From Nakamurella sp. (GTDB lineage Bacteria; Actinomycetota; Actinomycetes; Mycobacteriales; Nakamurellaceae), in the NCBI RefSeq assembly GCF_044224575.1, contig NZ_JBGAKE010000009.1:32162-96161 (forward strand): a stretch of DNA of 64,000 nucleotides, given 5' to 3'. The notes under the pieces are model-generated. The model was not told the origin of the DNA and made no database searches. It saw only the letters and a list, made by a program, of their open reading frames with translations. The number at the start of each line of letters is the position of its first letter. The first letter of the stretch is position 1. The position numbers were made by a program, and so were the translations under genes. Below, piece after piece: positions 7,424-21,286 of the stretch.

Positions 7424-7545
7424 GTCCCTGCGTGACCGCCCGGCCCGCCAGGACCTTCTCCCCTTCCGTTGCCGGCTGCGGCCCGACGAGAGTTGGCTCC
7501 AGCGGGGCCGATCCGCGTGCTGGCCCCCGGAGGCAAGGAGCAGCC

Positions 7546-7890
7546 ATGAAACTCGACGAGCTGGTCAACTCAACTCGGGAAGCGCTGACGGTCAAGAGGG
7601 TCTACGCCGAACCGTTCGAAAAGGATGGCCTCGCAGTCATTCCGGCCGCCTCGGTCAGGGGTGGTGCGGGCGGCGGCTCCGGTCACGACGAGAAGGGCCA
7701 GGAGGGTGAGGGCGGCGGCTTCGGGATGACCGGCAGCCCGGCCGGGGCGTACGTCGTCCAGGGCGGCAAGGTCAAGTGGCTCCCCGCGGTGGACCCCAAC
7801 CGCCTGTTCGTCATGGTCGGCTTGGCGGTGATCGCGTACCTGCTCATGCGACCGCGGATGGCTCGCGCCCGTGGCCCGGCCAGTTCCTGA
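7546..7890 (+). CDS. YtfJ/GerW-like protein
   Basis: TVKRVYAEP.EKDG.AVIPAA.V.GG.GGG.G...GGGFG...P.GAYV; AAGGAG RBS. Confidence 0.85.
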   Translation: MKLDELVNSTREALTVKRVYAEPFEKDGLAVIPAASVRGGAGGGSGHDEKGQEGEGGGFGMTGSPAGAYVVQGGKVKWLPAVDPNRLFVMVGLAVIAYLLMRPRMARARGPASS

Positions 7891-8055
7891 ATTCCTCTCG
7901 GAAGGATTGTTTGCGGGCCGGCCGCGGCCGTCGATCCTTCCTGGCCGTCGCGGTCACCTCACCGATGAGCGGCACAGCGGCGCCGGCACCCACCCTGGCG
8001 ACGGGGCACTCCCGGCGTCGCTGCCCGTCGGAACCGAACCGAAGGAGCAACTGCC

Positions 8056-8712
8056 ATGACCGCGCCAACCAAGCCGTACGCTGCCCGGCTCGAGATCGAC
8101 TACCCCGAGCACCTGGACCGGATCACCACGGCATTCCGGTTCATCTGGATCATCCCGATCGCCATCGTGCTGGGAGCGCTGTCCGCCGCCGCCACGTCCA
8201 GTGTCACCGTCATCACCGACACCGGTCAGGTCGTGACCCAGGTCAGCCGGACCGGCGGCGGCATCGCCGGCGGGTTGTTCGCGGCAACGCTGCTGATGGT
8301 CGTGTTCCGTCGTCGTTACCCGCGCTGGTGGTTCGACTTCGCCTTGCAGTTCAACCGGTTCGGCGCCCGGGTCGCCGCGTACGGGGCGCTGCTCACCGAC
8401 CGGTACCCGTCGACCGTCGAGGAGCAGTCCGTCCACCTGGACCTCGACTACCCCGACGCGGAAAAGGATCTGAACCGCTGGTTACCGCTGGTCAAGTGGC
8501 TGCTGGTGATCCCGCACATCATCGTGCTCGCGTTCCTGTTCCTGGGCGCCTTCTTCGCGGTCATCATCGCCTGGTTCGCCATCCTGTTCACCGGGCGATA
8601 CCCGCGCGGCCTGTTCGACTACGTCGTGGGCGTCACCCGGTGGGCGCTGCGGGTCAGCGCCTACGCAACCCTACTGCTGACCGACCGCTACCCGCCCTTC
8701 CGCCTCGGCTAG
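8056..8712 (+). CDS. DUF4389 domain membrane protein (two repeats)
   Basis: Repeated R.....FR.I..IP / FTGRYPRGLFDY..G..RW..RV.AY..LLTDRYPPF; AAGGAG RBS. Confidence 0.9.
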   Translation: MTAPTKPYAARLEIDYPEHLDRITTAFRFIWIIPIAIVLGALSAAATSSVTVITDTGQVVTQVSRTGGGIAGGLFAATLLMVVFRRRYPRWWFDFALQFNRFGARVAAYGALLTDRYPSTVEEQSVHLDLDYPDAEKDLNRWLPLVKWLLVIPHIIVLAFLFLGAFFAVIIAWFAILFTGRYPRGLFDYVVGVTRWALRVSAYATLLLTDRYPPFRLG

Positions 8713-10302: not shown

Positions 10303-11448
10303 GTGACCCAGCCGATCGAACTGATGCCAACGGAGCCGGCCGCGACGGGCCGGCTTCTTGCCCTGCCCGACCACGGAACACGTGTCCGGGACCACCTCAC
10401 CGCCGTCGACGGCCTCCTGGACCGGACCATGGCCGCGCTGTCCGAGCAGTGGGCCGAACTGGTCGGCGGCCGGCCGGCGGACGTGCTCGGCAGCGCCGAT
10501 CTGCCGCAGCTGCTCACCACGCTGCTGCGCAGCGGCGGCAAGCGGATCCGCCCGACCATGACCTGCTTGGGCTGGGCGGCGGCCGGTGGACCGCACCGCG
10601 CCGGCGATCGCCAGACCATCGTGACCGTGAGTGCCGCGCTCGAACTGCTGCACCTGTTCGCCCTCGTCCATGACGACGTCATGGACGAGTCGGACTCTCG
10701 CCGCGGCGTGCCGACCATCCACCGCCAGGCCGGGCTTCGCCACATCTCGGCGGGCTCCGCCGGCGACTCCCGATTGTTCGGCACCAGCATTGCGATCCTG
10801 GCCGGGGACCTGGCGCTGGCCGAGGCGGAAGGACTGATCGCCGAGACCACGCCCGGTATCCGTCGGCTCTGGCGGCATCTGGTCATCGAACTCGTCGTCG
10901 GCCAACGTGAGGACCTGACCGGCACCGCGGCCCGCCGCCGCGACCTGACCTTCGCCCGCACGGTGGCCATCCTCAAGTCGGGGTGCTACACGGTGCAGCG
11001 TCCGCTCGAGCTGGGCGCGGCCGCGGCGTCCGCGCCGGAGGCGGTTGCGCATCGGCTTCGGCGGTACGGCCAGACCCTCGGTGAGGCGTTCGCCCTGCGC
11101 GACGACATCCTGGGCATCTGGGGCGACCCGGACCGGACCGGCAAGCCGGCGGGCGACGACCTGATCACCGGGAAACCGACGGTGCTCCTGTCCATCGCCC
11201 ACGACCGGACCCGATCGGGCGCCGCCCGGCGGGCGCTGGATCGGGTGGGCACGCCCGCGTTCGACGGGGTGGACCTGGCGCTGCTGCTGGACGAACTGGT
11301 CAGCAACGGAACCCGGTCGGCCGTCGAGCGGATGATCGGGGACGCGGTGGACGCGGCCCTACACGCCCTCGACGACCCGTCGCTCGACCCGGACGCCGCC
11401 GACGAACTCCGGCGTCTCGCGCACACCATCGCCTGGCGCGAGCGATGA
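10303..11448 (+). CDS. crtE: Geranylgeranyl diphosphate synthase (polyprenyl synthetase)
   Basis: GGKRIRP, LVHDDVMDESDSRRGVPT (FARM), FALRDDILG, GKPAGDDL; start uncertain (GTG 10303). Confidence 0.9.
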   Translation: MTQPIELMPTEPAATGRLLALPDHGTRVRDHLTAVDGLLDRTMAALSEQWAELVGGRPADVLGSADLPQLLTTLLRSGGKRIRPTMTCLGWAAAGGPHRAGDRQTIVTVSAALELLHLFALVHDDVMDESDSRRGVPTIHRQAGLRHISAGSAGDSRLFGTSIAILAGDLALAEAEGLIAETTPGIRRLWRHLVIELVVGQREDLTGTAARRRDLTFARTVAILKSGCYTVQRPLELGAAAASAPEAVAHRLRRYGQTLGEAFALRDDILGIWGDPDRTGKPAGDDLITGKPTVLLSIAHDRTRSGAARRALDRVGTPAFDGVDLALLLDELVSNGTRSAVERMIGDAVDAALHALDDPSLDPDAADELRRLAHTIAWRER

Positions 11449-12929
11449 GCCGGATCGTCGTCGTGGGGGCCGGCCTGGCCGGCCTCGCCGCCGGCTGTCA
11501 CCTGGCCGGGCGCGGTCACGACGTGCTGGTCACCGAACGGGAATCCATTCCCGGCGGCCGGTCCGGCCGGCAGGCATCCGCCGGTTTCGTCTTCGACACC
11601 GGCCCATCGGTGCTGACGATGCCGCAACTCATCGCCGACACGCTGGGGGCCGCCGGCGTGCGGATGACCGACGTGCTGACCCTGCGCCGGCTGGACCCGG
11701 CGTACCGGGCCGTGTACGCGGACGGCAGCACCCTGCGCGTGCGCGCCGAGCACGCGGCCATGCGAGCCGAGATCGACGCGGCCAGCGGGCCGGTCGACGC
11801 CGCGGCATACGACCGGTTCACCGGCTGGCTCGCGCAGCTCTACGACGCCGAGTGGTCCCGGTTCATCGATCGCAACTTCGCCACCTCGCTCGACCTGGTG
11901 TCCTCGCCGCGGGCGGCCGCCCGGCTGCTGCGGCTCGGAGCGTTCGGCCGGCTCGGCCCGGCCGTGCGGCGGCGCTTCGCCGACCCGCGACTGCACCGGC
12001 TGTTCAGCTTCCAGGCCCTGTACGCCGGCCTGTCTCCGGACGACGCGCTGGCCCTCTACGCGGTGATCACCTACATGGACACGGTGCAGGGCGTCTGGTA
12101 CCCCGACGGCGGCATGCACGCGATACCAGCCGCGCTGGCCACCGCGTGCGAGAAGGCGGGCGGCCGGATTCTGTACGGAGCGGAGGTCACCGAGATCCTG
12201 CGCCGCGGCGACACCGGGGGCGTGGCAGGAGTGCGGTTCGCGGACGGGGAAATCGAACGCGCGGACGCGGTGGTGCTCACCCCCGACCTGCCGGTGGCCT
12301 ACCGCCGGCTGCTACCGGAACTGCGCCCGCCCGCAGCCGTGCGATCAGGGACCTACTCGCCATCGGCCGTCGTCTGGCACCTGGGCGTGCGCGGCCGCCC
12401 GGATGACGACACCGCCCACCACAACATTCATTTCGGTGACGAGTGGGCGGGCGCGTTCACCGCGCTGCTGCGCGACGGTCGGCTGATGCCCGACCCGTCC
12501 CGGCTGGTGACGGTGCCGAGCCGGACCGACCCCGGAGCCGCGCCCGCCGGTTGCAGCACCCTGTTCGTGCTCGAACCCGTGCCCAACCTGACGGCCGACC
12601 TGGACTGGACCGTGCAGGCCGGTCCCATGCGCGAGCGGCTGCTGGCCTTCCTGGCCGACGCCGGGTACCCGACCGACATCGTCGTCGAGCAGCTCGTCAC
12701 CCCGCTGGACTGGGAGCGGGGCGGAATGCACCTGGGCACGCCCTTCTCGCTGGCGCACACGTTCCGGCAGACCGGCCCCTTCCGGCCGCCGAACATCGAG
12801 AAGCGGGTGCCCGGCGTCTTCTTCGCCGGTTCCGGGACGGTCCCCGGCGTCGGCGTCCCGATGGTGTTGATCTCCGGGAAATTGGCGGCCGACCGGATCG
12901 ACCGTTACGTGGGAGCAGGTGCGCGATGA
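11445..12929 (+). CDS. crtI: Phytoene desaturase
   Basis: VVVGAGLAGL FAD motif, FDTGPSVLTMP, LFSFQALYAGLSP, FAGSGTVPGVGVPMVLISGKLAA; 4-bp overlap with crtE. Confidence 0.95.
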   Translation: MSRIVVVGAGLAGLAAGCHLAGRGHDVLVTERESIPGGRSGRQASAGFVFDTGPSVLTMPQLIADTLGAAGVRMTDVLTLRRLDPAYRAVYADGSTLRVRAEHAAMRAEIDAASGPVDAAAYDRFTGWLAQLYDAEWSRFIDRNFATSLDLVSSPRAAARLLRLGAFGRLGPAVRRRFADPRLHRLFSFQALYAGLSPDDALALYAVITYMDTVQGVWYPDGGMHAIPAALATACEKAGGRILYGAEVTEILRRGDTGGVAGVRFADGEIERADAVVLTPDLPVAYRRLLPELRPPAAVRSGTYSPSAVVWHLGVRGRPDDDTAHHNIHFGDEWAGAFTALLRDGRLMPDPSRLVTVPSRTDPGAAPAGCSTLFVLEPVPNLTADLDWTVQAGPMRERLLAFLADAGYPTDIVVEQLVTPLDWERGGMHLGTPFSLAHTFRQTGPFRPPNIEKRVPGVFFAGSGTVPGVGVPMVLISGKLAADRIDRYVGAGAR

Positions 12930-13807
12930 CGCTGGCGGTCGACGAGCACCTGCTGCAGACCGGGTACCGGCAGTGCGCCGAGATCACCCGGCGACACGGC
13001 ACCACGTACTACTGGGGTACCCAACTGCTGCCGCGGGAACGGCGCCGGCACGTCCACGCGGTCTACGCCCTGTGCCGCCGGGCCGACGACATCGTTGACG
13101 ATCCGGCCGCCACCGCGGGTCGCGATCCGGCCGAGATCCGGGCCGAACTGTTCGGTTTTGCCGATCAGTTCCGCAGCGCGGGGCAGTGCGGCCCGACCGA
13201 TCCGGTCCTGGCCGCGGTCGCGCACACGGTCCGCACCGTCGGCATCCCGCAGGAGTGCTTCGATCGCTTCTTCGGGGCCATGGCCATGGACCTGACCATC
13301 ACGCGGTACGAGACGTGGGAGGACCTGCTCGGCTACATGGAGGGGTCGGCCGCGGTGATCGGCGAGATGATGCTGCCGGTCCTGCAACCGCTGGGCCCTG
13401 AGGCGATCGAGCCCGCGCGGGCCCTAGGCTTCGCCTTCCAGTACACCAACTTCCTGCGCGACGTCGCCGAGGATCTCGACCGCGGGCGCATCTACCTGCC
13501 GCAGGAGGAGTTGCGCCGGTTCGGCGTCCGGCCGGTGGACCTGGGCCGCCGCCGGGTGACCCCCCAGTGGCGTGACTTCATGGCCCACGAAATCGAACGC
13601 GCGCGCGGCCTGTACCGGGTCGCGGACGGCGGCCTGCCCTGGCTCCCGCCGCGTTCGGCCCGCTGCGTGGCCACGGCCCGGGTGCTCTACTCCCGGATCC
13701 TGGACCGGATCGAGGCCGCCGACTACGACGTCTTCCGGGTCCGGGCGCGGGTGCCCACCTGGCGCAAGGCCGGCACCGCAGCCCGGATCCTGGTCACCGG
13801 TCCCTGA
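12926..13807 (+). CDS. crtB: Phytoene synthase
   Basis: AVYALCRRADDIVD, AFQYTNFLRDVAEDLDRGRIYLP; ATGA overlap with crtI. Confidence 0.95.
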   Translation: MTLAVDEHLLQTGYRQCAEITRRHGTTYYWGTQLLPRERRRHVHAVYALCRRADDIVDDPAATAGRDPAEIRAELFGFADQFRSAGQCGPTDPVLAAVAHTVRTVGIPQECFDRFFGAMAMDLTITRYETWEDLLGYMEGSAAVIGEMMLPVLQPLGPEAIEPARALGFAFQYTNFLRDVAEDLDRGRIYLPQEELRRFGVRPVDLGRRRVTPQWRDFMAHEIERARGLYRVADGGLPWLPPRSARCVATARVLYSRILDRIEAADYDVFRVRARVPTWRKAGTAARILVTGP

Positions 13808-13812
13808 TCACC

Positions 13813-13841
13813 CGTCGCTGAGCAGAACTGCCCCAGCGACG
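13813..13841. terminator. Stem-loop between convergent crtB and crtU
   Basis: CGTCGCTG-A-GCAG-AA-CTGC-CC-CAGCGACG inverted repeat. Confidence 0.6.
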
Positions 13842-13846
13842 CCTCG

Positions 13847-15382
13847 TCACACCGCGAGTCGGCGCAACGCGCGGATCGCCGGCACCCGCGACGACAGCGG
13901 GACCGACCACAGGTCGTGCCCACGCAGGCCCCAGCCGGCCAGCAACGCGTTGGCGGCCTGCCAACCGGTGGTGGCCGCCCGTTCCATCAGCGCGACCGGC
14001 AGATCACAGCGCACGCCGTCCCCGGCCAGCACCAGCCGGGCGTCGTCGGTGCGGACACCGGGCCGGTGCCGCCGCTCCCCCGGCCGGAACGACGGGCAGT
14101 CGTCCGAGACGAGCCACTCGTCGGCCAGCACCGCGGCCGAACGACTCTCCGGGTAGACGGCGGCCAGTTCCGCCCGAAGAGCGGACCGCAACGCCGGTTC
14201 GGACCACCGGTCGTCGATCGCATAGGCGTGCACCTCCACAACCGATCCCCCGCGCGTCCCCGCCCAACGACGGGCCCCCGCCTCGTACCGGTCCAGCACC
14301 GACACGTTGTCCAGCAGTTCGAAGCCGCCGGTGCCCAGGAACGCCGGCCGGTCGGCCCGGAGTGGGGTGTCGAGCCACAGCCGCCACACGACGAAGCGGG
14401 GTGCGTTGCCCGTCCTGGTCAGCGACTCCCGCCAGCCCTGTGCGGGCAACCCGGTGGCGTCGGCGACGAGCCGGCGGGTGGTGCGGGGGTCGGCGGCCAG
14501 CACGACGGCATCCACCTCGATATCCCGGGCACCGGCTCGCGCGTGTACCGGGCCGGCCGCGGTGAACCGCAGATCGTCCACCGCGGTCCCGGTCAGGACC
14601 TCGACTCCGGATCGAATCATGTGGTGCTGCAGCGGGTTCCAGAACACCGTTCCGAAGTCGTCGGCCGCGACGTCGAACAGCAATCCCTCGGACGAGCCGA
14701 CGAAGTACAGGTGGAACATCGCCAGCAGCTCCCCGGCGGCGTACTCGGCGGGGTCGGCGAAGAAACTGCGGGTGAAGACCTCGAGCGCCAGGTGGCGGAC
14801 GGCCGGCGGGAAGTTGAGCTCATCCAGGAAAGTGCCGGCGCTGATCGCGTCGAAGTCGTCGAAGGACCGCGGGAAGTCCAGATCGAGCATGCTCGACGAC
14901 GCCGCGATGTCCGCCCGGAAGAGCGCACGCGGCCCGAAATTCGGGCTCCGCAGCGCGTACCAGAACAGATTGGCCGGCGGGGTCCGGGGCACCCGGGCGA
15001 ACGAATCGGCCGCCCCGTCGGCCATGACCACGGGGTAGTCGGGCACCGGCAGCAGGCCGGCCAGGGCCGGGTCGACCCGCCGCAACAGGGCCCGCAGGTT
15101 GTAGTACTGGCGGAAGAACGCGTGGAAGCCGCGGCTCATGGTGACCTGGTCCCCGCCGTGCGACACCGGCCACGACCGGACCCGGCCGCCCAACTGCGGT
15201 TCCCGCTCCGCGAGGACGACCCGGATCCCACGTTCGGCGAGGCCAACGGCCGCCGCGATCCCGGCGATTCCGCCGCCCACCACCAGCACCCGAGGCGCCG
15301 GCGCCGCCGCCCGCAGCGCCCCACCGGCCGCCGGGTGCCGGACCGCCTTGCGGTCCCGTCCCGGCCGCCACTGCGCGCTCAT
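13847..15382 (-). CDS. crtU: Carotenoid ring desaturase/methyl-migrating enzyme (isorenieratene synthase)
   Basis: VLVVGGGIAG, LGGRVRSW, MSRGFHAFFRQYYNLR, MFHLYFVGSSEGLLFDV, LPVALMERAATTG; follows the lycopene cyclases. Confidence 0.9.
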   Translation of the reverse strand: MSAQWRPGRDRKAVRHPAAGGALRAAAPAPRVLVVGGGIAGIAAAVGLAERGIRVVLAEREPQLGGRVRSWPVSHGGDQVTMSRGFHAFFRQYYNLRALLRRVDPALAGLLPVPDYPVVMADGAADSFARVPRTPPANLFWYALRSPNFGPRALFRADIAASSSMLDLDFPRSFDDFDAISAGTFLDELNFPPAVRHLALEVFTRSFFADPAEYAAGELLAMFHLYFVGSSEGLLFDVAADDFGTVFWNPLQHHMIRSGVEVLTGTAVDDLRFTAAGPVHARAGARDIEVDAVVLAADPRTTRRLVADATGLPAQGWRESLTRTGNAPRFVVWRLWLDTPLRADRPAFLGTGGFELLDNVSVLDRYEAGARRWAGTRGGSVVEVHAYAIDDRWSEPALRSALRAELAAVYPESRSAAVLADEWLVSDDCPSFRPGERRHRPGVRTDDARLVLAGDGVRCDLPVALMERAATTGWQAANALLAGWGLRGHDLWSVPLSSRVPAIRALRRLAV

Positions 15383-15714
15383 GATGCCGCCCCTTCCCGA
15401 TCGACCGGCCGCACTGCCGCGCGCCGGCCCAGCCAGGTCCAGGCCACCAGGGTCAGCGTCACCAGGCCGAAACCGAATCCGAGATCCTCGACGGGCGCCC
15501 ACCCGAGCCGGATCCCCAGGATCACCTCGGGGTCGTACTGCACGATCCCCAGCCCGGTCAGGATGCCGTTGACGATCAGCTGGAAGAACACGACGATCGC
15601 ATAGCTCGCCCAGAACAGCCGGGTGCGCAGCAACCGCGTGCGCAGGACCACCAGGTCCAGCAGCACGGCCACCCCGATCGCGACGAGCGCCGCAGCGGTG
15701 TAGGCGCCGATCAT
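15379..15714 (-). CDS. crtYd: Heterodimeric lycopene cyclase subunit
   Basis: FFQLIVNGILTG...IVQYDP...G.RLGWAPVEDLGFGF; c/d label assigned from gene order. Confidence 0.85.
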   Translation of the reverse strand: MIGAYTAAALVAIGVAVLLDLVVLRTRLLRTRLFWASYAIVVFFQLIVNGILTGLGIVQYDPEVILGIRLGWAPVEDLGFGFGLVTLTLVAWTWLGRRAAVRPVDREGAAS

Positions 15715-16058
15715 CGCCGGTCCTCCAGATCGTCCGCGGCGACGCCGGCCCAGCGCGGCTTGAGCCGGCGCACCGCCTCGAACGTCAGGAGGGCACAAAT
15801 CGGAACGACGAGGAAGAACATCAGTTCCTCCCAGGGCAGCGCGCCGACGAACAGGCCTGTCAGGTACTGCTCGTCGAACCACCACCAGCCGGCGTGGGTG
15901 GCCAGATAGTCCCAGAGCACGAACGCGGTGGCGACCGGCAGGATCGCCGCCGCGGCCCGCCGCCACTGCCGGTACACCCGGGCTCCGATGACGAATTCGA
16001 GTGGGGCCGTCAGGACCAGGCAGGCCAGCAACACCGCCAGGTACGTCAGGTGCTGCAC
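15711..16058 (-). CDS. crtYc: Heterodimeric lycopene cyclase subunit
   Basis: FVLWDYLA...GWWWFD...G...LPWEE.MFF.VVP.C; GGAGG RBS; c/d label assigned from gene order. Confidence 0.85.
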   Translation of the reverse strand: MQHLTYLAVLLACLVLTAPLEFVIGARVYRQWRRAAAAILPVATAFVLWDYLATHAGWWWFDEQYLTGLFVGALPWEELMFFLVVPICALLTFEAVRRLKPRWAGVAADDLEDRR

Positions 16059-16077
16059 CGGGACACCTCCGAATCGG

Positions 16078-17280
16078 TCACGAGCGGGGCCGGTGTTCCA
16101 GTATCAGCGGCCCCCGGGGGGTCAGCGTCAGGACGCCGGCCGGCCGCGGGTCACCGGCGACCCGGCGCAGCGTGCCCCGGGCGAAGGCGCGCGTCGCCGC
16201 CTCCACCATCGCGATGGCCAGTGCTGCCCCCAGGCAGCTGCGTTCGCCCGCTCCGAACGGCAGGTACCCCCAGGCCGGCAGCGGCTGGTCGAAGCGTTCG
16301 GGACGAAACTCGTTGGGCTGCAACCACATCTGTGGGTCACGGTGGGTCAGGTACGGGCTGTACAGGACCAGCTGCCCGGCTCGGATAAACCGGCTGTCGA
16401 TCTCGACGGGCCGGGTCGCGACGCGACTGCCGATCCATCCGGCCGGATACAGCCGCAGCGCCTCCCGCACGGCGACCTCGGTGCGATCCACGTCGTTCAG
16501 GTCGGACCGTCCAGCCACCTCCCACAACGTGAAGGCCAGCGTGTGTGCGGTCGTGTCGTAACCCGCGGCCAGCGCGACCCGGGCCTCCTCGGCCGCAACC
16601 GGCCCGGGCAGGCCGGCGAACGCCTCGATCAGCGTCGCCGGGGGTGGATCGGCCATCGCGTCCTTCAGGACGGCGGTCATCCGCCCGATCCGGACCGGAC
16701 GAGGGAGCAGCGGCGCGGGCAGCGCCCGGTCCAGTGGGGCCAGAAACCGGCCCAGGTCGACCGGTGGGTCGCCGGGACCGAAGAAGGCGTCGGCCAGCAT
16801 CCGGCGGACGATCGCCGCGGCCCAGGAGACCGCGTCGAAGACGCCGGTGGGCAGCCATCGATCTACGACGCCGTCGAACCGGCCGGAGAACAACGGGGTG
16901 ACGGCACGGCGGTGGAACGCCGGGTTGAGCCGGCTTCGCCGGCGGCGGTGCCCGGGGGCCTCGAGCGCGATGACGCCGCCGCGCAGGAACGGCGACAGCT
17001 GGCTCATGCTGCCCCGGCTGCGGAACGTCTCCAGGTCGCTCAGGATCATCCGGTTCCACTCGGGCCGGTAGCCGACGAGCGCGCTGCGCCAGAGCCGCAC
17101 CCGGAACACCGGTCCCAGCCGGGCGCCCTCCTCCAGCAGGGCGATCGCGTCGCGCCCCCATCGGGGCAGGTGACCGCTGAGCCGGGCGCCGGCCGGGCTC
17201 GGCACGGTCGACCCCGGAGCGGGGTCGAACTGCTCGGCGGACTGCGGTGGGACGCCCGGGTACAGGTGCGGGCGGCTCAC
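16078..17280 (-). CDS. Cytochrome P450, probable carotenoid hydroxylase
   Basis: AAGYDTTA (I helix), EALRLYP (ExxR), PERF, PFGAGERSCLG heme signature; GTGA overlap with the upstream glycosyltransferase. Confidence 0.9.
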   Translation of the reverse strand: MSRPHLYPGVPPQSAEQFDPAPGSTVPSPAGARLSGHLPRWGRDAIALLEEGARLGPVFRVRLWRSALVGYRPEWNRMILSDLETFRSRGSMSQLSPFLRGGVIALEAPGHRRRRSRLNPAFHRRAVTPLFSGRFDGVVDRWLPTGVFDAVSWAAAIVRRMLADAFFGPGDPPVDLGRFLAPLDRALPAPLLPRPVRIGRMTAVLKDAMADPPPATLIEAFAGLPGPVAAEEARVALAAGYDTTAHTLAFTLWEVAGRSDLNDVDRTEVAVREALRLYPAGWIGSRVATRPVEIDSRFIRAGQLVLYSPYLTHRDPQMWLQPNEFRPERFDQPLPAWGYLPFGAGERSCLGAALAIAMVEAATRAFARGTLRRVAGDPRPAGVLTLTPRGPLILEHRPRS

Positions 17281-18413
17281 GTGGCGTAACTTCGGCCCCG
17301 CCAGACCTGCCGCCGGCGCAGGCCCTGCCCGATGACGGGAATCGCGGCGATCGGCGAGGCGGCGACCGCCAGCACGGCCACCCAGTCGCGGCCACCGGTC
17401 TTGAGCTCCAGCAGGGCGCGCTCGGCCAGGCCGAGGGCGGGGGCCAGCCGCCACCGCGGCCGGCCGATCCCCAGCAACGGCGGCGCGGTGTAGGCCAGCA
17501 CATGCCAGCACCAGGCCGCCAGCACCAGCCAGCGGCGGCCGCCCGCCATGGGCAGCAGGCCGCGACCCAGGCCCGCCACGACCTCTCGCCGGTTCCGGTA
17601 CATCCGCACCTGCGCGGTGGCGCCGCCGAGGGCCAGACCCAGCCGCAGACCGCGCGCCCGGACGGCCCGGGCCAGGGCGACATCCTCCACGACCGCGGCG
17701 CGGACCGCACCGAAACCACCCACCGCTACGTACGCGTCGCGGCGGAACGCGAACAACGCCCCATGGGCGGTGGCGGCGGACCTGACCGGCATCCGCAATA
17801 GGCCGAACGGGAGCCAGCACAGCAGCACGTCGACGATCAGCGGAGCCAGCAGGCGCTCGCTCCAGGTCCCGGTTCGGTGCCGCGGGAACACCGAGAACAC
17901 CCGTGCCTCCTGGCGTTCCATCTCGCCCAGGAACGAGTGGGCCGCGCCGGGCGCCAGCAGCACATCGGCATCGCAGAACACCAGCGTTCCGGCGTCGCTG
18001 GCCTGCGCGAGCTGCGTGCAGGCCCACGTCTTGCCCGCCCAACCCGGCGGTCGCGGACGGCCGGTGATCAGACGGGTGCGGGTGTCCGGTGGCGCGCTCC
18101 GCAGCATCCGCCGAACGACGGCCGCGGTGCCGTCGGTGGACCCGTCGTCGAGCAGCACCACCTCCCCGAATCCGGCCGCCAGCATGCCCGGCAGCGCCAG
18201 CGGGATCCGCTCGGCCTCGTCGCGCAGCGGGACGAGCAGGGCCGCATCCCGGTGGTTCGACCGACTCGCCGGAGGATGCCCGGGCAGGGTGGGGAACCAC
18301 CACAGGTTGGCGACCAGCACGGCCAGCTTGACCGAGAGGAAGGCGAGCACCGGCACCGCGGCACGGTCGATCGCGCCCCCTCCGATCGGCCCCGGCCGTC
18401 GCGGGCTCGTCAC
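17277..18413 (-). CDS. Family 2 glycosyltransferase, CruC-like carotenoid glycosyltransferase
   Basis: LLVPLRDE, LDDGSTDGT, PPGWAGKTWAC.QL, FCDADV; N- and C-terminal TM segments; GTGA-coupled at both ends. Confidence 0.85.
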   Translation of the reverse strand: MTSPRRPGPIGGGAIDRAAVPVLAFLSVKLAVLVANLWWFPTLPGHPPASRSNHRDAALLVPLRDEAERIPLALPGMLAAGFGEVVLLDDGSTDGTAAVVRRMLRSAPPDTRTRLITGRPRPPGWAGKTWACTQLAQASDAGTLVFCDADVLLAPGAAHSFLGEMERQEARVFSVFPRHRTGTWSERLLAPLIVDVLLCWLPFGLLRMPVRSAATAHGALFAFRRDAYVAVGGFGAVRAAVVEDVALARAVRARGLRLGLALGGATAQVRMYRNRREVVAGLGRGLLPMAGGRRWLVLAAWCWHVLAYTAPPLLGIGRPRWRLAPALGLAERALLELKTGGRDWVAVLAVAASPIAAIPVIGQGLRRRQVWRGRSYAT

Positions 18414-19093
18414 CGGGAAATCCGCTCGGACCAACTGCGCACACCTCGTACTACCTGCCGGTACCCCGGCAACGGATGCGCGGGATCCGCCGCCGCCAGG
18501 GCGTCGTCGAGAACCGCGAGCCGATCCGCCAGGATTCTCGGCAGTCCGGCCACGGCGGGCACCGGGACGACGTCGAGGTAGGCCTCCGGGGCCTGATGTC
18601 CGCGGAGCACGATCCGCGTTGCGACCGCCAGCGGCGTCGCGCCCGCGCGCCGGGCGAGCCAGGCCGCGCCTGGTCGCACCGGGCCCAGCGGGCCGGGCGC
18701 ACGCAGCTCACCCTCCGGGAAGATGACGAGCACCCCGCCCGACACCGCCAGCTCGGCGGCCGCGCGCAACCGGTCCGAGCCCACCGCGCCGGCCCAGCCG
18801 AACACCGTCCGGGACGCGATGTTGGCCGGATCCATCAGGACGCCGACATCGCTCCGACCGGCCGCCCGCAGGGCCGAGAGGGCGACGAAGTAGTCCCACC
18901 AGCTGTGATGATTGGCCGCCCAGATCGCTGACCCGGTCGGTAGTTCGCCACGAACCCAGACCCCCCGCAGGTTCCGGCGGACCAGCCGGTCCAGGCAGAA
19001 GCTCGCCGCGGCAGCGGGTTTGCTCGCCATCGGCGCCGGACCTGCGCCGATCTTTCGCCGTCGCGGCGACCCGGGCGGGCGTGCTCCGCCCAT
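18410..19093 (-). CDS. PlsC-family (lysophospholipid-type) acyltransferase, CruD-like
   Basis: AANHHSWWD (NHxxxxD), LVIFPEG; start uncertain (19093 or 19030). Confidence 0.85.
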   Translation of the reverse strand: MGGARPPGSPRRRKIGAGPAPMASKPAAAASFCLDRLVRRNLRGVWVRGELPTGSAIWAANHHSWWDYFVALSALRAAGRSDVGVLMDPANIASRTVFGWAGAVGSDRLRAAAELAVSGGVLVIFPEGELRAPGPLGPVRPGAAWLARRAGATPLAVATRIVLRGHQAPEAYLDVVPVPAVAGLPRILADRLAVLDDALAAADPAHPLPGYRQVVRGVRSWSERISR

Positions 19094-19172
19094 TGTCTGT
19101 CGCACGGAACCACCGTAGGCCGGACCTTCCCGCCCTGGTTGATCTTCCTGGGCTCGGTCGAGAGAGATCTCG

Positions 19173-19676
19173 TCAGTCAGGCAGTTCGATCACGATGCCG
19201 GTGCCCGACCGGGTCGGGGTTGCCCCGAAGGCCCGGAACAGGGTCATCACCGCGTCGTTCTCGACGGCCACCGATGTCACGATCCGCTTGGCCGGGCGGG
19301 GCCGGTTGGCGGCCAGCAGATGTCCAAGGACGTGGCCCAGGCCGGCGCCCTGGTAGTCGTCGGCAATCGCCATCCCGACGTCCAGCAGGTCCGGGTCGTC
19401 CGGATAGCGCAGGATCCGGGCGACCCCGACGAGCCGATCGGAATCATCGAAGGCGGCGAAGGCCACGTGGTCGACCCCGTCGACCGAGTCGACCAGATGC
19501 CGGAGCGCGGCGGCGCCGAGGTTCCGCGGTGCCGAGCCGAACCGGAGCCGCTTCGAGTTTGCCGAAAGCTGCTGAAACGCGTCCGCGAGCGCGGCCCCGT
19601 CACCGGCGTGGAGCGGACGGATCAGCACCTGCCGGCCGTCGCGCAACGTCACCCACGCCGGGTCCTGATCGCTCAT
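19173..19676 (-). CDS. GNAT family N-acetyltransferase
   Basis: TLRDGRQVLIRPL...D, LS.NS.RLRF, DGVDHVA, IADDYQGAGLG acetyl-CoA motif. Confidence 0.85.
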   Translation of the reverse strand: MSDQDPAWVTLRDGRQVLIRPLHAGDGAALADAFQQLSANSKRLRFGSAPRNLGAAALRHLVDSVDGVDHVAFAAFDDSDRLVGVARILRYPDDPDLLDVGMAIADDYQGAGLGHVLGHLLAANRPRPAKRIVTSVAVENDAVMTLFRAFGATPTRSGTGIVIELPD

Positions 19677-19717: not shown

Positions 19718-21286
19718 CTAGATCGCGACGATCAGCTGCACCAGGATCACTTTGGCGATCATGCCGACGGCGAACAGGGCAGTGAATCCGGCGCCCAGAC
19801 GTTCGTCGTCGACCTTGGAGTTGCCGTAGGCCAGGATGGCCGGCTGGCTGATCAGCCCGGCGAGGAGGCCGGCGGCACGTACCGGGCTGGTGCCGAACAT
19901 CCTGGCGACCACACCGAGGATGACGTCGGTGATCACGACCACGACGATGCCGGTGAGCACGATCCGCAGTCCCGCGCCGGTGAATGCCTGGGACGCGAAC
20001 GCCTGCCCGGAAGCCAGTCCGGTGGCGGCCAGGAACAGCAGAAGTCCCAGTTGGCGGATCGTCAGGTTGGCCGAGTTCGGCAGGCCCCAGACGATCCGCC
20101 CGGTCCGCTCCTGCCGGCCCAGGATCATGCCGACGACCAGCGGCCCGGCCGAAGCGCCCAGACTGAGGCTGATACCGCCGGGGATGGGCACCTTGACCAG
20201 ACCGACCAGCAGGCCCGCGGCCAGTCCGATGCTCAGGCTCAGCGCGTCGACCTCGCTGATCTTGCGCTCGGAATCGCCGAGGTAGTGGCCGACGTCGCTC
20301 ATCCACCGGCGCGGTACGACCACGCGGAGCCGGTCGCCCAGTTCGACGACCAGGTCCTCGCGGGCAAGCAGTTCGGTGTCACCGCGGCGGACCCGGGTGA
20401 TGATCCCGTCGAACCGGCGGGGGATGTCCAGGCTGCCGACCGTCCGCCCGGCAATCATCGGGCTCGAGATCAGGATCCGCCGGTAGTCGACCTCGGAGCG
20501 GTCATGGGCCAGGTGGCGCTTCGCCCGGCGGCCCAGGAAGTCGCAGGCAGCGGCCGCCGGTCCGGCGGGGCCGATGATGACCACCCGATCCCCCGGGGCC
20601 AGCTGCTCGTCGTCCCGGACCACCCGGGTGACCTCGTCGCGACGCAGGTAGGAGAAGCGGATGAGGTGTTCGGCGAATCCGGGCACGTCCGACAGGCGGG
20701 CCGGTCGCTGCACTTCGATGGTGAAGTCGACCAGCGCCTGCGCGGCCACGGGCGGTTGATCCTTCGGGCACGCCCAGGTCCGGTTCAGGATGACGGACAT
20801 GGCCACGATGGTCAGCACCACCCCGAAGGGATAGGTCAGCGCGTATCCCACCGCCGGTTCGTTGCTGGCCGCCCGCGCGGTCGCCGAAGCCAGGGCCGGG
20901 GTGCTGGTCAACGCGCCGGCGAACGCGCCGCCCCGGACCGCCGAGTCCAGCCCCAGCGCACCCCCGACTCCGATGACCAGGACGGTGGAGATCGCCAGCA
21001 CGCCGAGCGCGCTGAGCATGATGGGAAGTTGGCTCCGGACCGAGTGGAAGAAGGCCGCTCCGGAGGCCAGGCCGACCGTGTACACGAACAGGGCCAGGCC
21101 CAGCGTGCGGACCAGGTCCAGGCCCTCACCCAGCCGCGGGTCGATCGCTCCGAAGGCCAGGCCGACGAACAGGGCGCCCGCCGGTCCGAGCTTGACCGCA
21201 CCGAACGGCACGATCCCGAGCAGGGTGCCCAGGGCCACCACCAGCATGACCGTCAGCAGGGGGCTGGCCGCGAGAAGGTCGGTCAT
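19718..21286 (-). CDS. AspT/YidE/YbjL family (aspartate:alanine exchanger-type) transporter with TrkA-C domains
   Basis: LGPAGALFVGL, GLALFVYTVGLASG, GALTSTPAL, YALTYPFG, RVRRGD, GPLVVGMILG, RQLGLLLFLA. Confidence 0.9.
   Translation of the reverse strand: MTDLLAASPLLTVMLVVALGTLLGIVPFGAVKLGPAGALFVGLAFGAIDPRLGEGLDLVRTLGLALFVYTVGLASGAAFFHSVRSQLPIMLSALGVLAISTVLVIGVGGALGLDSAVRGGAFAGALTSTPALASATARAASNEPAVGYALTYPFGVVLTIVAMSVILNRTWACPKDQPPVAAQALVDFTIEVQRPARLSDVPGFAEHLIRFSYLRRDEVTRVVRDDEQLAPGDRVVIIGPAGPAAAACDFLGRRAKRHLAHDRSEVDYRRILISSPMIAGRTVGSLDIPRRFDGIITRVRRGDTELLAREDLVVELGDRLRVVVPRRWMSDVGHYLGDSERKISEVDALSLSIGLAAGLLVGLVKVPIPGGISLSLGASAGPLVVGMILGRQERTGRIVWGLPNSANLTIRQLGLLLFLAATGLASGQAFASQAFTGAGLRIVLTGIVVVVITDVILGVVARMFGTSPVRAAGLLAGLISQPAILAYGNSKVDDERLGAGFTALFAVGMIAKVILVQLIVAI

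Follow-up and report, generated by a model that had tools for sequence, protein, structure and literature searches.

The aromatic carotenoid glycosides in the glycocarotenoid catalogue (PMC5884252) are all monocyclic, hydratase-dependent compounds, namely OH-chlorobactene glucoside laurate and sioxanthin. Related tailoring enzymes occur in Deinococcus-Thermus. In Thermus thermophilus, TT_P0057, TT_P0059, TT_P0061, TT_P0062 and TT_P0066 are assigned as CrtB, CrtZ, CruD, CruC and CrtI for thermozeaxanthins (PMC4021367). The major pigment of Meiothermus ruber is a 1'-glucoside ester with a keto group at ring C-2 (PMC3035268, PMC5884252), and DR_2473 of Deinococcus radiodurans is CYP287A1, a carotenoid 2-beta-hydroxylase in deinoxanthin synthesis (Zhou et al. 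2015, as cited in PMC6300522). Here we describe a nine-gene carotenoid (crt) cluster in a stretch of 64,000 nucleotides from Nakamurella sp. (contig NZ_JBGAKE010000009.1, positions 32,162 to 96,161; hereafter the window). It unites CrtU, a putative carotenoid phi-ring synthase, with a module of cytochrome P450, family 2 glycosyltransferase (GT2) and acyltransferase (AT) otherwise known from Deinococcus-Thermus, and it predicts an undescribed aromatic carotenoid bearing a sugar and a fatty acid.

The nine genes form two convergent, translationally coupled operons. The crtE-crtI-crtB operon on the plus strand faces AT-GT2-P450-crtYc-crtYd-crtU on the minus strand across a gap of 39 nucleotides. 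Overlaps of four nucleotides join crtE/crtI, crtI/crtB, crtYc/crtYd and crtYd/crtU (ATGA) as well as AT/GT2 and GT2/P450 (GTGA). The P450/crtYc junction is a 19-nucleotide spacer with a GGAGG located 7 nucleotides upstream of the crtYc GTG. The gene set, order and orientation given in a first-pass annotation of this DNA were borne out for nine of nine genes by Pfam and NCBIfam scans and by reading the junctions.

The whole host genome (5.54 Mb in 43 contigs, estimated 95.9% complete) was searched for protein families in six frames. It has no match to CruF (PF04240) or to CrtC (PF07143), both of which are matched in the control genomes, and no match to the CrtZ/CrtG/CrtR-type hydroxylases (PF04116). 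A tblastn search of the same genome with the cluster proteins detected no second CrtI-family, CrtU, cyclase, GT2 or AT paralogue. Besides crtU, crtI is the sole CrtI-family gene, which rules out CrtD and CrtO. The cluster is the entire carotenoid pathway of this genome, and the lack of CruF-, CrtC- and CrtZ-type enzymes and of a second CrtI-family gene leaves the P450 as the one enzyme recognisable as a source of carotenoid hydroxyls. The first-pass annotation had reported no crtC/cruF hydratase in the window, which now extends to the whole genome; the P450-made hydroxyl that it had proposed as acceptor of the GT2 and AT is accordingly the only plausible one. The arrangement of the founding CruC/CruD members, in which a CruF/CrtC 1,2-hydratase supplies the acceptor hydroxyl, does not apply here. 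Among the control genomes, Thermus thermophilus matches the CrtC family PF07143, though its thermozeaxanthins need no 1,2-hydratase.

The P450 sequence exhibits intact motifs in the I-helix (AGYDTTAH), at ExxR (EALRLYP) and at PFGAGERSCLG. By P450 nomenclature, family membership calls for at least 40% identity to the type member, which for CYP287 is CYP287A1/DR_2473. The window P450 shows a borderline identity to this protein (41.8% over 380 amino acids by blastp, 45% by HMMER) and 48% identity to the M. ruber enzyme. Maximum-likelihood trees place the three proteins in one clade (100/100), so that both identity and monophyly assign the window P450 to CYP287. Inside this clade, the sequences from Nakamurella, Jatrophihabitans and a metagenome-assembled genome (MAG) of Trueperaceae cluster together (97/96). 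In the D. radiodurans R1 genome (G040), the P450 match at 2.47 Mb fits DR_2473 and a CruF match at 92 kb fits DR_0091. Among the 121 Deinococcota genomes searched, about 75 of 3-5 Mb contain one full-length homologue each (42-51% identity), and those of Thermus size yield matches of 30-39% identity over partial length only. Across 401 sampled genomes of the class, CYP287-like P450s are confined to two families, one of them the window's own. By analogy with the characterised member, hydroxylation of a beta ring at C-2 would be the most likely activity of the window P450.

The first-pass annotation had looked to Thermus CYP175A1 for comparison, and the phylogeny leads away from it. The Thermus P450s match the CYP175A1 structures 1WIY and 1N97 with 539 bits and are therefore true CYP175A1 orthologues. 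The window P450 is 30-37% identical to them over part of its length, and a very long branch sets the CYP175A1 group apart from its clade; it lacks the close relationship to PDB 1N97 expected of a CYP175A1-type 3-hydroxylase. An AlphaFold model of the P450 (predicted local distance difference test score, pLDDT, 87) retrieves generic P450 folds from the PDB with Foldseek (CYP184A1, CYP3A4/5; template modelling score ~0.8). CYP175A1 is not among the top 50 matches of this model, which has no bearing on the substrate. A profile search of PDB sequences likewise gave generic matches.

The GT2 exhibits a DAD motif and transmembrane segments at both termini, and the AT exhibits HX4D (HHSWWD) and FPEGE motifs. 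The NCBIfam CruG model matches the GT2 at 1e-28, below its cut-off; the top NCBIfam match, well under cut-off, is the hopanoid-associated HpnB. Compared with the Thermus enzymes at the CruC and CruD positions, the GT2 shows 39-40% and the AT 41-43% identity; for the Meiothermus-type pairs, the values are 45-47% and 39-46%, respectively. Thus the window holds, side by side in a carotenoid cluster, a GT2 with DxD and a PlsC AT with HX4D, as expected of a CruC/CruD-type pair, and both are homologous to pairs assigned in the glycoside-ester producers Thermus and M. ruber. This homology to CruD/CruC of the thermozeaxanthin pathway lends weight to the idea of sugar and acyl tailoring, which had been put forward from the window alone. 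The gene order in three Thermus genomes (crtB .. CYP175A1 .. AT-GT2 .. crtI) matches the published TT_P0057-66 assignments. The trees of the GT2 and of the AT agree with that of the P450, which indicates that the triad travelled as a unit. The two cyclase subunits CrtYc and CrtYd (115 and 111 amino acids) have transmembrane segments and both score above the PF18916 and TIGR03462 cut-offs, in line with a heterodimeric lycopene beta-cyclase made of two small adjacent membrane proteins with a cyclase domain each.

The presence of CruF separates the known systems. CruF adjoins the AT in seven of the seven Meiothermus- or Deinococcus-like genomes with an AT-GT2-x-P450 arrangement. It is absent from three Thermus genomes, seven other Nakamurella genomes, the window genome, an MFD MAG, Jatrophihabitans telluris and the Trueperaceae MAG. 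The known chemistry is consistent with this division: the sugar is on the acyclic 1'-OH where CruF is present (M. ruber) and on a P450-made ring hydroxyl where it is absent (Thermus). The choice of acceptor by the GT2/AT pair tracks CruF cleanly, providing a simple genomic rule for the position of the sugar. The window combines a Meiothermus/Deinococcus-type P450 with the hydratase-free logic of Thermus. In M. ruber (G017, C1:364210-364764) and its equivalents (G121, G056, G064, G084, G066, G114), cruF lies immediately upstream of the AT gene, and the resulting cruF-AT-GT2-(CrtI-family gene)-P450 clusters fit the published M. ruber pigment.

CrtU exhibits a GGGIAG motif and an Amino_oxidase fold, and shares 56-62% identity with proteins that their sources call isorenieratene synthase or carotenoid phi-ring synthase (about 60% to the "isorenieratene synthase" of Nakamurella sp. 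UYEF19); in sequence and linkage it agrees with a phi-ring synthase. The survey covered 37 genomes of the GTDB genus to which the window belongs, with N. multipartita, N. flavida and N. antarctica among its members. The P450 is present in 16 of them, crtU in nine and both in five. About 11 Nakamurella species exhibit a base layout, (crtE)-AT-GT2-P450-crtYc-crtYd facing crtB-crtI, in genomes devoid of crtU. The same layout, again free of crtU and facing crtB-crtI, is also found in J. telluris and on metagenome contigs, and the module occurs with neither crtU nor cruF in those Nakamurella species, J. telluris and the Trueperaceae MAG. The gene crtU directly follows crtYd, with the rest syntenic, in the window, in N. 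multipartita DSM 44233 (G530), in G524 and in two MFD MAGs. It also follows crtYd in G554, but with no adjacent AT. In another genome, G536, GT2-P450 and a classical crtYcYd-crtU cluster occupy separate loci, and four species of the genus together with Nakamurella sp. UYEF19 have the classical isorenieratene cluster only. The cluster is therefore not unique to the window: N. multipartita DSM 44233 and no fewer than three further genomes have it in full synteny; a single-protein scan of genome contigs returned only two close MAGs. Judged from this distribution, AT-GT2-P450-crtYcYd is an ancestral, self-standing module and crtU the add-on of a sub-lineage to which the type strain N. multipartita DSM 44233 belongs. 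The P450s of clusters with and without crtU differ at only two conservative alignment columns, and there is no apparent sign of retuning for an aromatic substrate. As the module works without CrtU in most relatives, the hydroxyl is more likely to be on a non-aromatised beta ring than on an aryl ring, and the aryl-ring placement proposed in the first-pass annotation has become the less likely one.

In the pathway that we infer, including its substrate, regiochemistry, sugar, acyl group and order of steps, CrtE, CrtB and CrtI would produce lycopene and CrtYc/CrtYd would cyclise it to beta rings, as their family membership suggests. The CYP287-type P450 would hydroxylate a beta ring, for which the analogy with CYP287A1 makes C-2 the most likely position. 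Since CruF, CrtC and CrtZ are all missing, this ring hydroxyl would be the acceptor of the membrane-bound CruC-like GT2, and the CruD-like PlsC AT would esterify the sugar with a fatty acid, paralleling the Thermus thermozeaxanthins with another P450 family. CrtU would aromatise the beta rings left without a hydroxyl; a substituent at C-2 should stand in the way of its C1-to-C2 methyl shift. As signature product we predict an asymmetric phi,beta-carotenoid with a hydrophobic aryl end and an O-(acyl-glycosyl) beta-ring end, expected together with isorenieratene and beta,beta mono- and di-glycoside esters. We consider this hybrid, with one aryl ring and one P450-hydroxylated beta ring carrying the acylated sugar, the most likely product and give it about an even chance.

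Several points weigh against this proposal. The regiochemistry of the P450 is not secure at 42-48% identity to characterised or correlated members, the blocking of CrtU by a C-2 hydroxyl is a mechanistic argument, and the assignments of CruC and CruD in Thermus are themselves based on homology. CrtYc/CrtYd might yield monocyclic products. Acylation is not universal, as G554 and N. flavida have GT2-P450 without an adjacent PlsC acyltransferase, and such relatives may make non-acylated glycosides. Plate colonies of N. multipartita, a carrier of the same cluster, are white to cream (PMC3035273), and the cluster may therefore be silent, expressed at a low level or dependent on induction by light.

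Among the other explanations, a phenolic or benzylic route would have CrtU make isorenieratene and the P450 hydroxylate a phi ring (at C-3, as in the 3,3'-dihydroxyisorenieratene of Brevibacterium, or at the C-2 methyl), to be decorated by the GT2 and AT to an aryl-O-glycoside ester. The translational coupling of crtU into the operon of the P450 suits this route, as does the retention of the crtU-P450 combination in no fewer than four or five species, whose P450s range over 62-77% identity. G536, with GT2-P450 kept beside a separate crtYcYd-crtU cluster, points the same way, and P450-dependent hydroxylation of isorenieratene is documented in Brevibacterium aurantiacum (cited in PMC12096840). 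However, about 11 Nakamurella species, J. telluris and the Trueperaceae MAG have P450s of this clade at work in the complete absence of crtU, the P450s that accompany crtU have no distinguishing substrate-site signature, and the one characterised member of the clade, as PMC6300522 cites it, acts on a beta ring. We thus regard the phenolic or benzylic route as unlikely. If it were true, an acyl-glycoside built directly on the aryl ring would represent a class of amphipathic aryl carotenoids with nothing comparable described so far. The more likely hybrid case would also bring a new type of carotenoid, O-glycoside esters at ring C-2, made by a module common to Nakamurella/Jatrophihabitans and Deinococcota.

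Thermozeaxanthin-like chemistry at C-3, despite the CYP287 ancestry, appears a poorer candidate still. It would give 3-O-glycoside esters of the zeaxanthin or cryptoxanthin type, possibly aromatised later to 3-hydroxy-phi rings. Thermus offers the sole precedent for the action of this AT/GT2 pair on a ring hydroxyl, there located at C-3 (PMC5884252), and CYP175A1 is the longest sequence match of the P450 among solved structures, though a weak one (residues 156-398, E-value = 2.6e-16). These points are set against the low, partial-length identity to the CYP175A1 orthologues, the very long branch between the two clades, and both functional anchors of the P450's own clade, which indicate C-2 in what PMC6300522 and PMC3035268 relate of them. 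We give the lowest weight to tailoring genes that are inactive, silent or directed at a non-carotenoid lipid, in a strain making only isorenieratene or nothing visible. The pale colonies of N. multipartita add something to the case for silence, the HpnB match of the GT2 would suit a lipid substrate, and genome mining of Nakamurella with antiSMASH labels such clusters simply "isorenieratene" (PMC9789016). But all open reading frames (ORFs) are intact with catalytic motifs, and the triad is coupled to crtYc/crtYd and has been kept beside crt genes in three lineages distant from one another. In Actinobacteria, many crt clusters are induced by light or stay cryptic on plates. The hybrid phi,beta glycoside ester remains our preferred reading. 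The type strain N. multipartita DSM 44233, which is public, harmless and culturable, has the same cluster and makes the prediction directly testable.

The coordinates of the nine genes are given in Table 1. The window has a G+C content of 72%, and mechanical ORF lists are full of artefacts; the genes were called from Pfam and NCBIfam scans of candidate frames and from junctions read off the sequence. For crtE, relatives align from residue 1 of the GTG start. A longer crtB ORF from 12443 was rejected as an alternative-frame artefact, the ATG chosen instead forming the ATGA overlap with the crtI stop. ORFs 16078-18444 (788 amino acids) and 16337-17719 (460 amino acids) were discarded as artefacts of high G+C.

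Table 1. Genes of the carotenoid cluster, in window coordinates
Feature	Coordinates	Strand	Support and remarks
crtE, polyprenyl (geranylgeranyl diphosphate, GGPP) synthase	10303..11448	+	PF00348 E 1e-43
crtI, phytoene desaturase	11445..12929	+	TIGR02734 crtI_fam 467 bits (cut-off 238)
crtB, phytoene synthase	12926..13807	+	PF00494 E 1e-77; ATG at 12926
crtU, putative carotenoid phi-ring synthase (beta-ring desaturase/methyl-shift enzyme)	13847..15382	-	Amino_oxidase/flavin adenine dinucleotide (FAD) fold
crtYd, lycopene cyclase subunit	15379..15714	-	PF18916 + TIGR03462
crtYc, lycopene cyclase subunit	15711..16058	-	PF18916 + TIGR03462; GTG start
Cytochrome P450, CYP287 clade, putative carotenoid ring hydroxylase	16078..17280	-	PF00067
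GT2 glycosyltransferase, membrane-anchored, CruC/CruG-like	17277..18413	-	PF13506 + PF00535
PlsC-type acyltransferase (AT), CruD-like	18410..19105	-	PF01553; start 19105, 19093 or 19030

The regions flanking the cluster show no conservation among relatives. A scan for promoters and terminators gave no signal above chance, and no LitR/CarH-type light regulator was found adjoining the cluster. On the AT side, an ORF of about 167 amino acids (MSDQDPAWVTLRDGRQVLIRPLHAGDG..., 19173-19676, minus strand) with the look of a GNAT-type acetyltransferase lies between the carotenoid AT and an AspT/YidE-type transporter gene (19718-21286); it is not kept beside the cluster in N. multipartita. On the crtE side, a small plus-strand ORF with a glycine-rich middle (7546-7890) resembles YtfJ/GerW by eye. 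The segment that holds it (7532-7899) is conserved directly upstream of crtE in N. multipartita, in tblastx pieces of 70-84% identity. In the window this ORF and crtE are about 2.4 kb apart; the interval contains a DUF4389 gene (7969-8712) and points to an insertion. The classical cluster of Nakamurella sp. UYEF19 has a Rieske/DUF5914 gene beside crtB (12891-13916), which the window cluster lacks. In Microlunatus capsulatus, crtU has a CrtD-like desaturase, CruF (PF04240) and a UbiA prenyltransferase as neighbours; this arrangement differs from that of the window and represents a hydratase-dependent type of aryl-carotenoid cluster. The Trueperaceae MAG (JAXHNB010000002.1, 46.5-84.8 kb) contains a crtB-crtY-AT-GT2-P450 block with sugar-ABC-transporter neighbours twice, about 17 kb apart, corresponding to a recent tandem duplication or an assembly artefact.

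Our literature search revealed no report of an aryl carotenoid with a P450-derived ring O-glycoside ester, all aryl glycosides found being hydratase-dependent; likewise the first-pass annotation could match its predicted compound to no characterised actinobacterial product. The search found no pigment chemistry for Nakamurella, and the sole relevant paper is the one with the antiSMASH "isorenieratene" call (PMC9789016). Among described systems, the thermozeaxanthin pathway of Thermus thermophilus (CrtY, CYP175A1, CruC TT_P0062, CruD TT_P0061) follows the same logic, from a bicyclic carotene through a P450-made ring hydroxyl and a GT2 to a PlsC ester, without CruF. Its AT and GT2 are homologous to those of the window and adjacent in both. 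However, its P450 belongs to CYP175 rather than to the CYP287 clade, the hydroxyl position probably differs (C-3 versus C-2), the gene order is unlike that of the window, and there is neither CrtU nor an aromatic ring. The gene sets of M. ruber and Deinococcus (CruF, CruD-like AT, CruC-like GT2, a CrtD-like protein and CYP287-type P450) share the P450 clade (42-50% identity) and a homologous P450-linked AT-GT2. There, CruF is next to the AT, the acyclic 1'-OH of a monocyclic carotenoid is glycosylated, and the P450 oxygenates C-2 independently of the sugar; the window in contrast has CrtU but neither CruF nor CrtD, and its product is expected to be bicyclic.

The classical actinobacterial isorenieratene clusters (crtEIBV/crtYTU of Streptomyces griseus; Mycobacterium; Nakamurella sp. 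UYEF19 and PAMC28650) share crtE-crtI-crtB, crtYc-crtYd and crtU with the window, but lack the P450/GT2/AT module, and their product is a plain hydrocarbon. The hydroxy-isorenieratene pathway of Brevibacterium linens/aurantiacum likewise joins an aryl carotenoid with P450-dependent hydroxylation; to our knowledge, neither glycosylation nor acylation occurs in it. OH-chlorobactene glucoside laurate (CruC/CruD of Chlorobaculum) and sioxanthin (Salinispora) each combine an aromatic ring with a sugar, acylated or not, at the opposite end, and their GT2 and PlsC types match those of the window. They are however monocyclic, with the sugar on the acyclic 1'-OH, and need the CruF/CrtC that the window genome lacks. 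Every enzyme family of the cluster is thus already known, and the idea of a P450, CruC and CruD acting on a ring hydroxyl comes from Thermus. The practical interest is modest and concerns membrane-anchoring pigments, antioxidants and the annotation of clusters now labelled "isorenieratene". What is new is this hydratase-independent module in Actinobacteria, with a CYP287-type instead of a CYP175-type P450 in the role of the hydroxylase, and its joining with CrtU.

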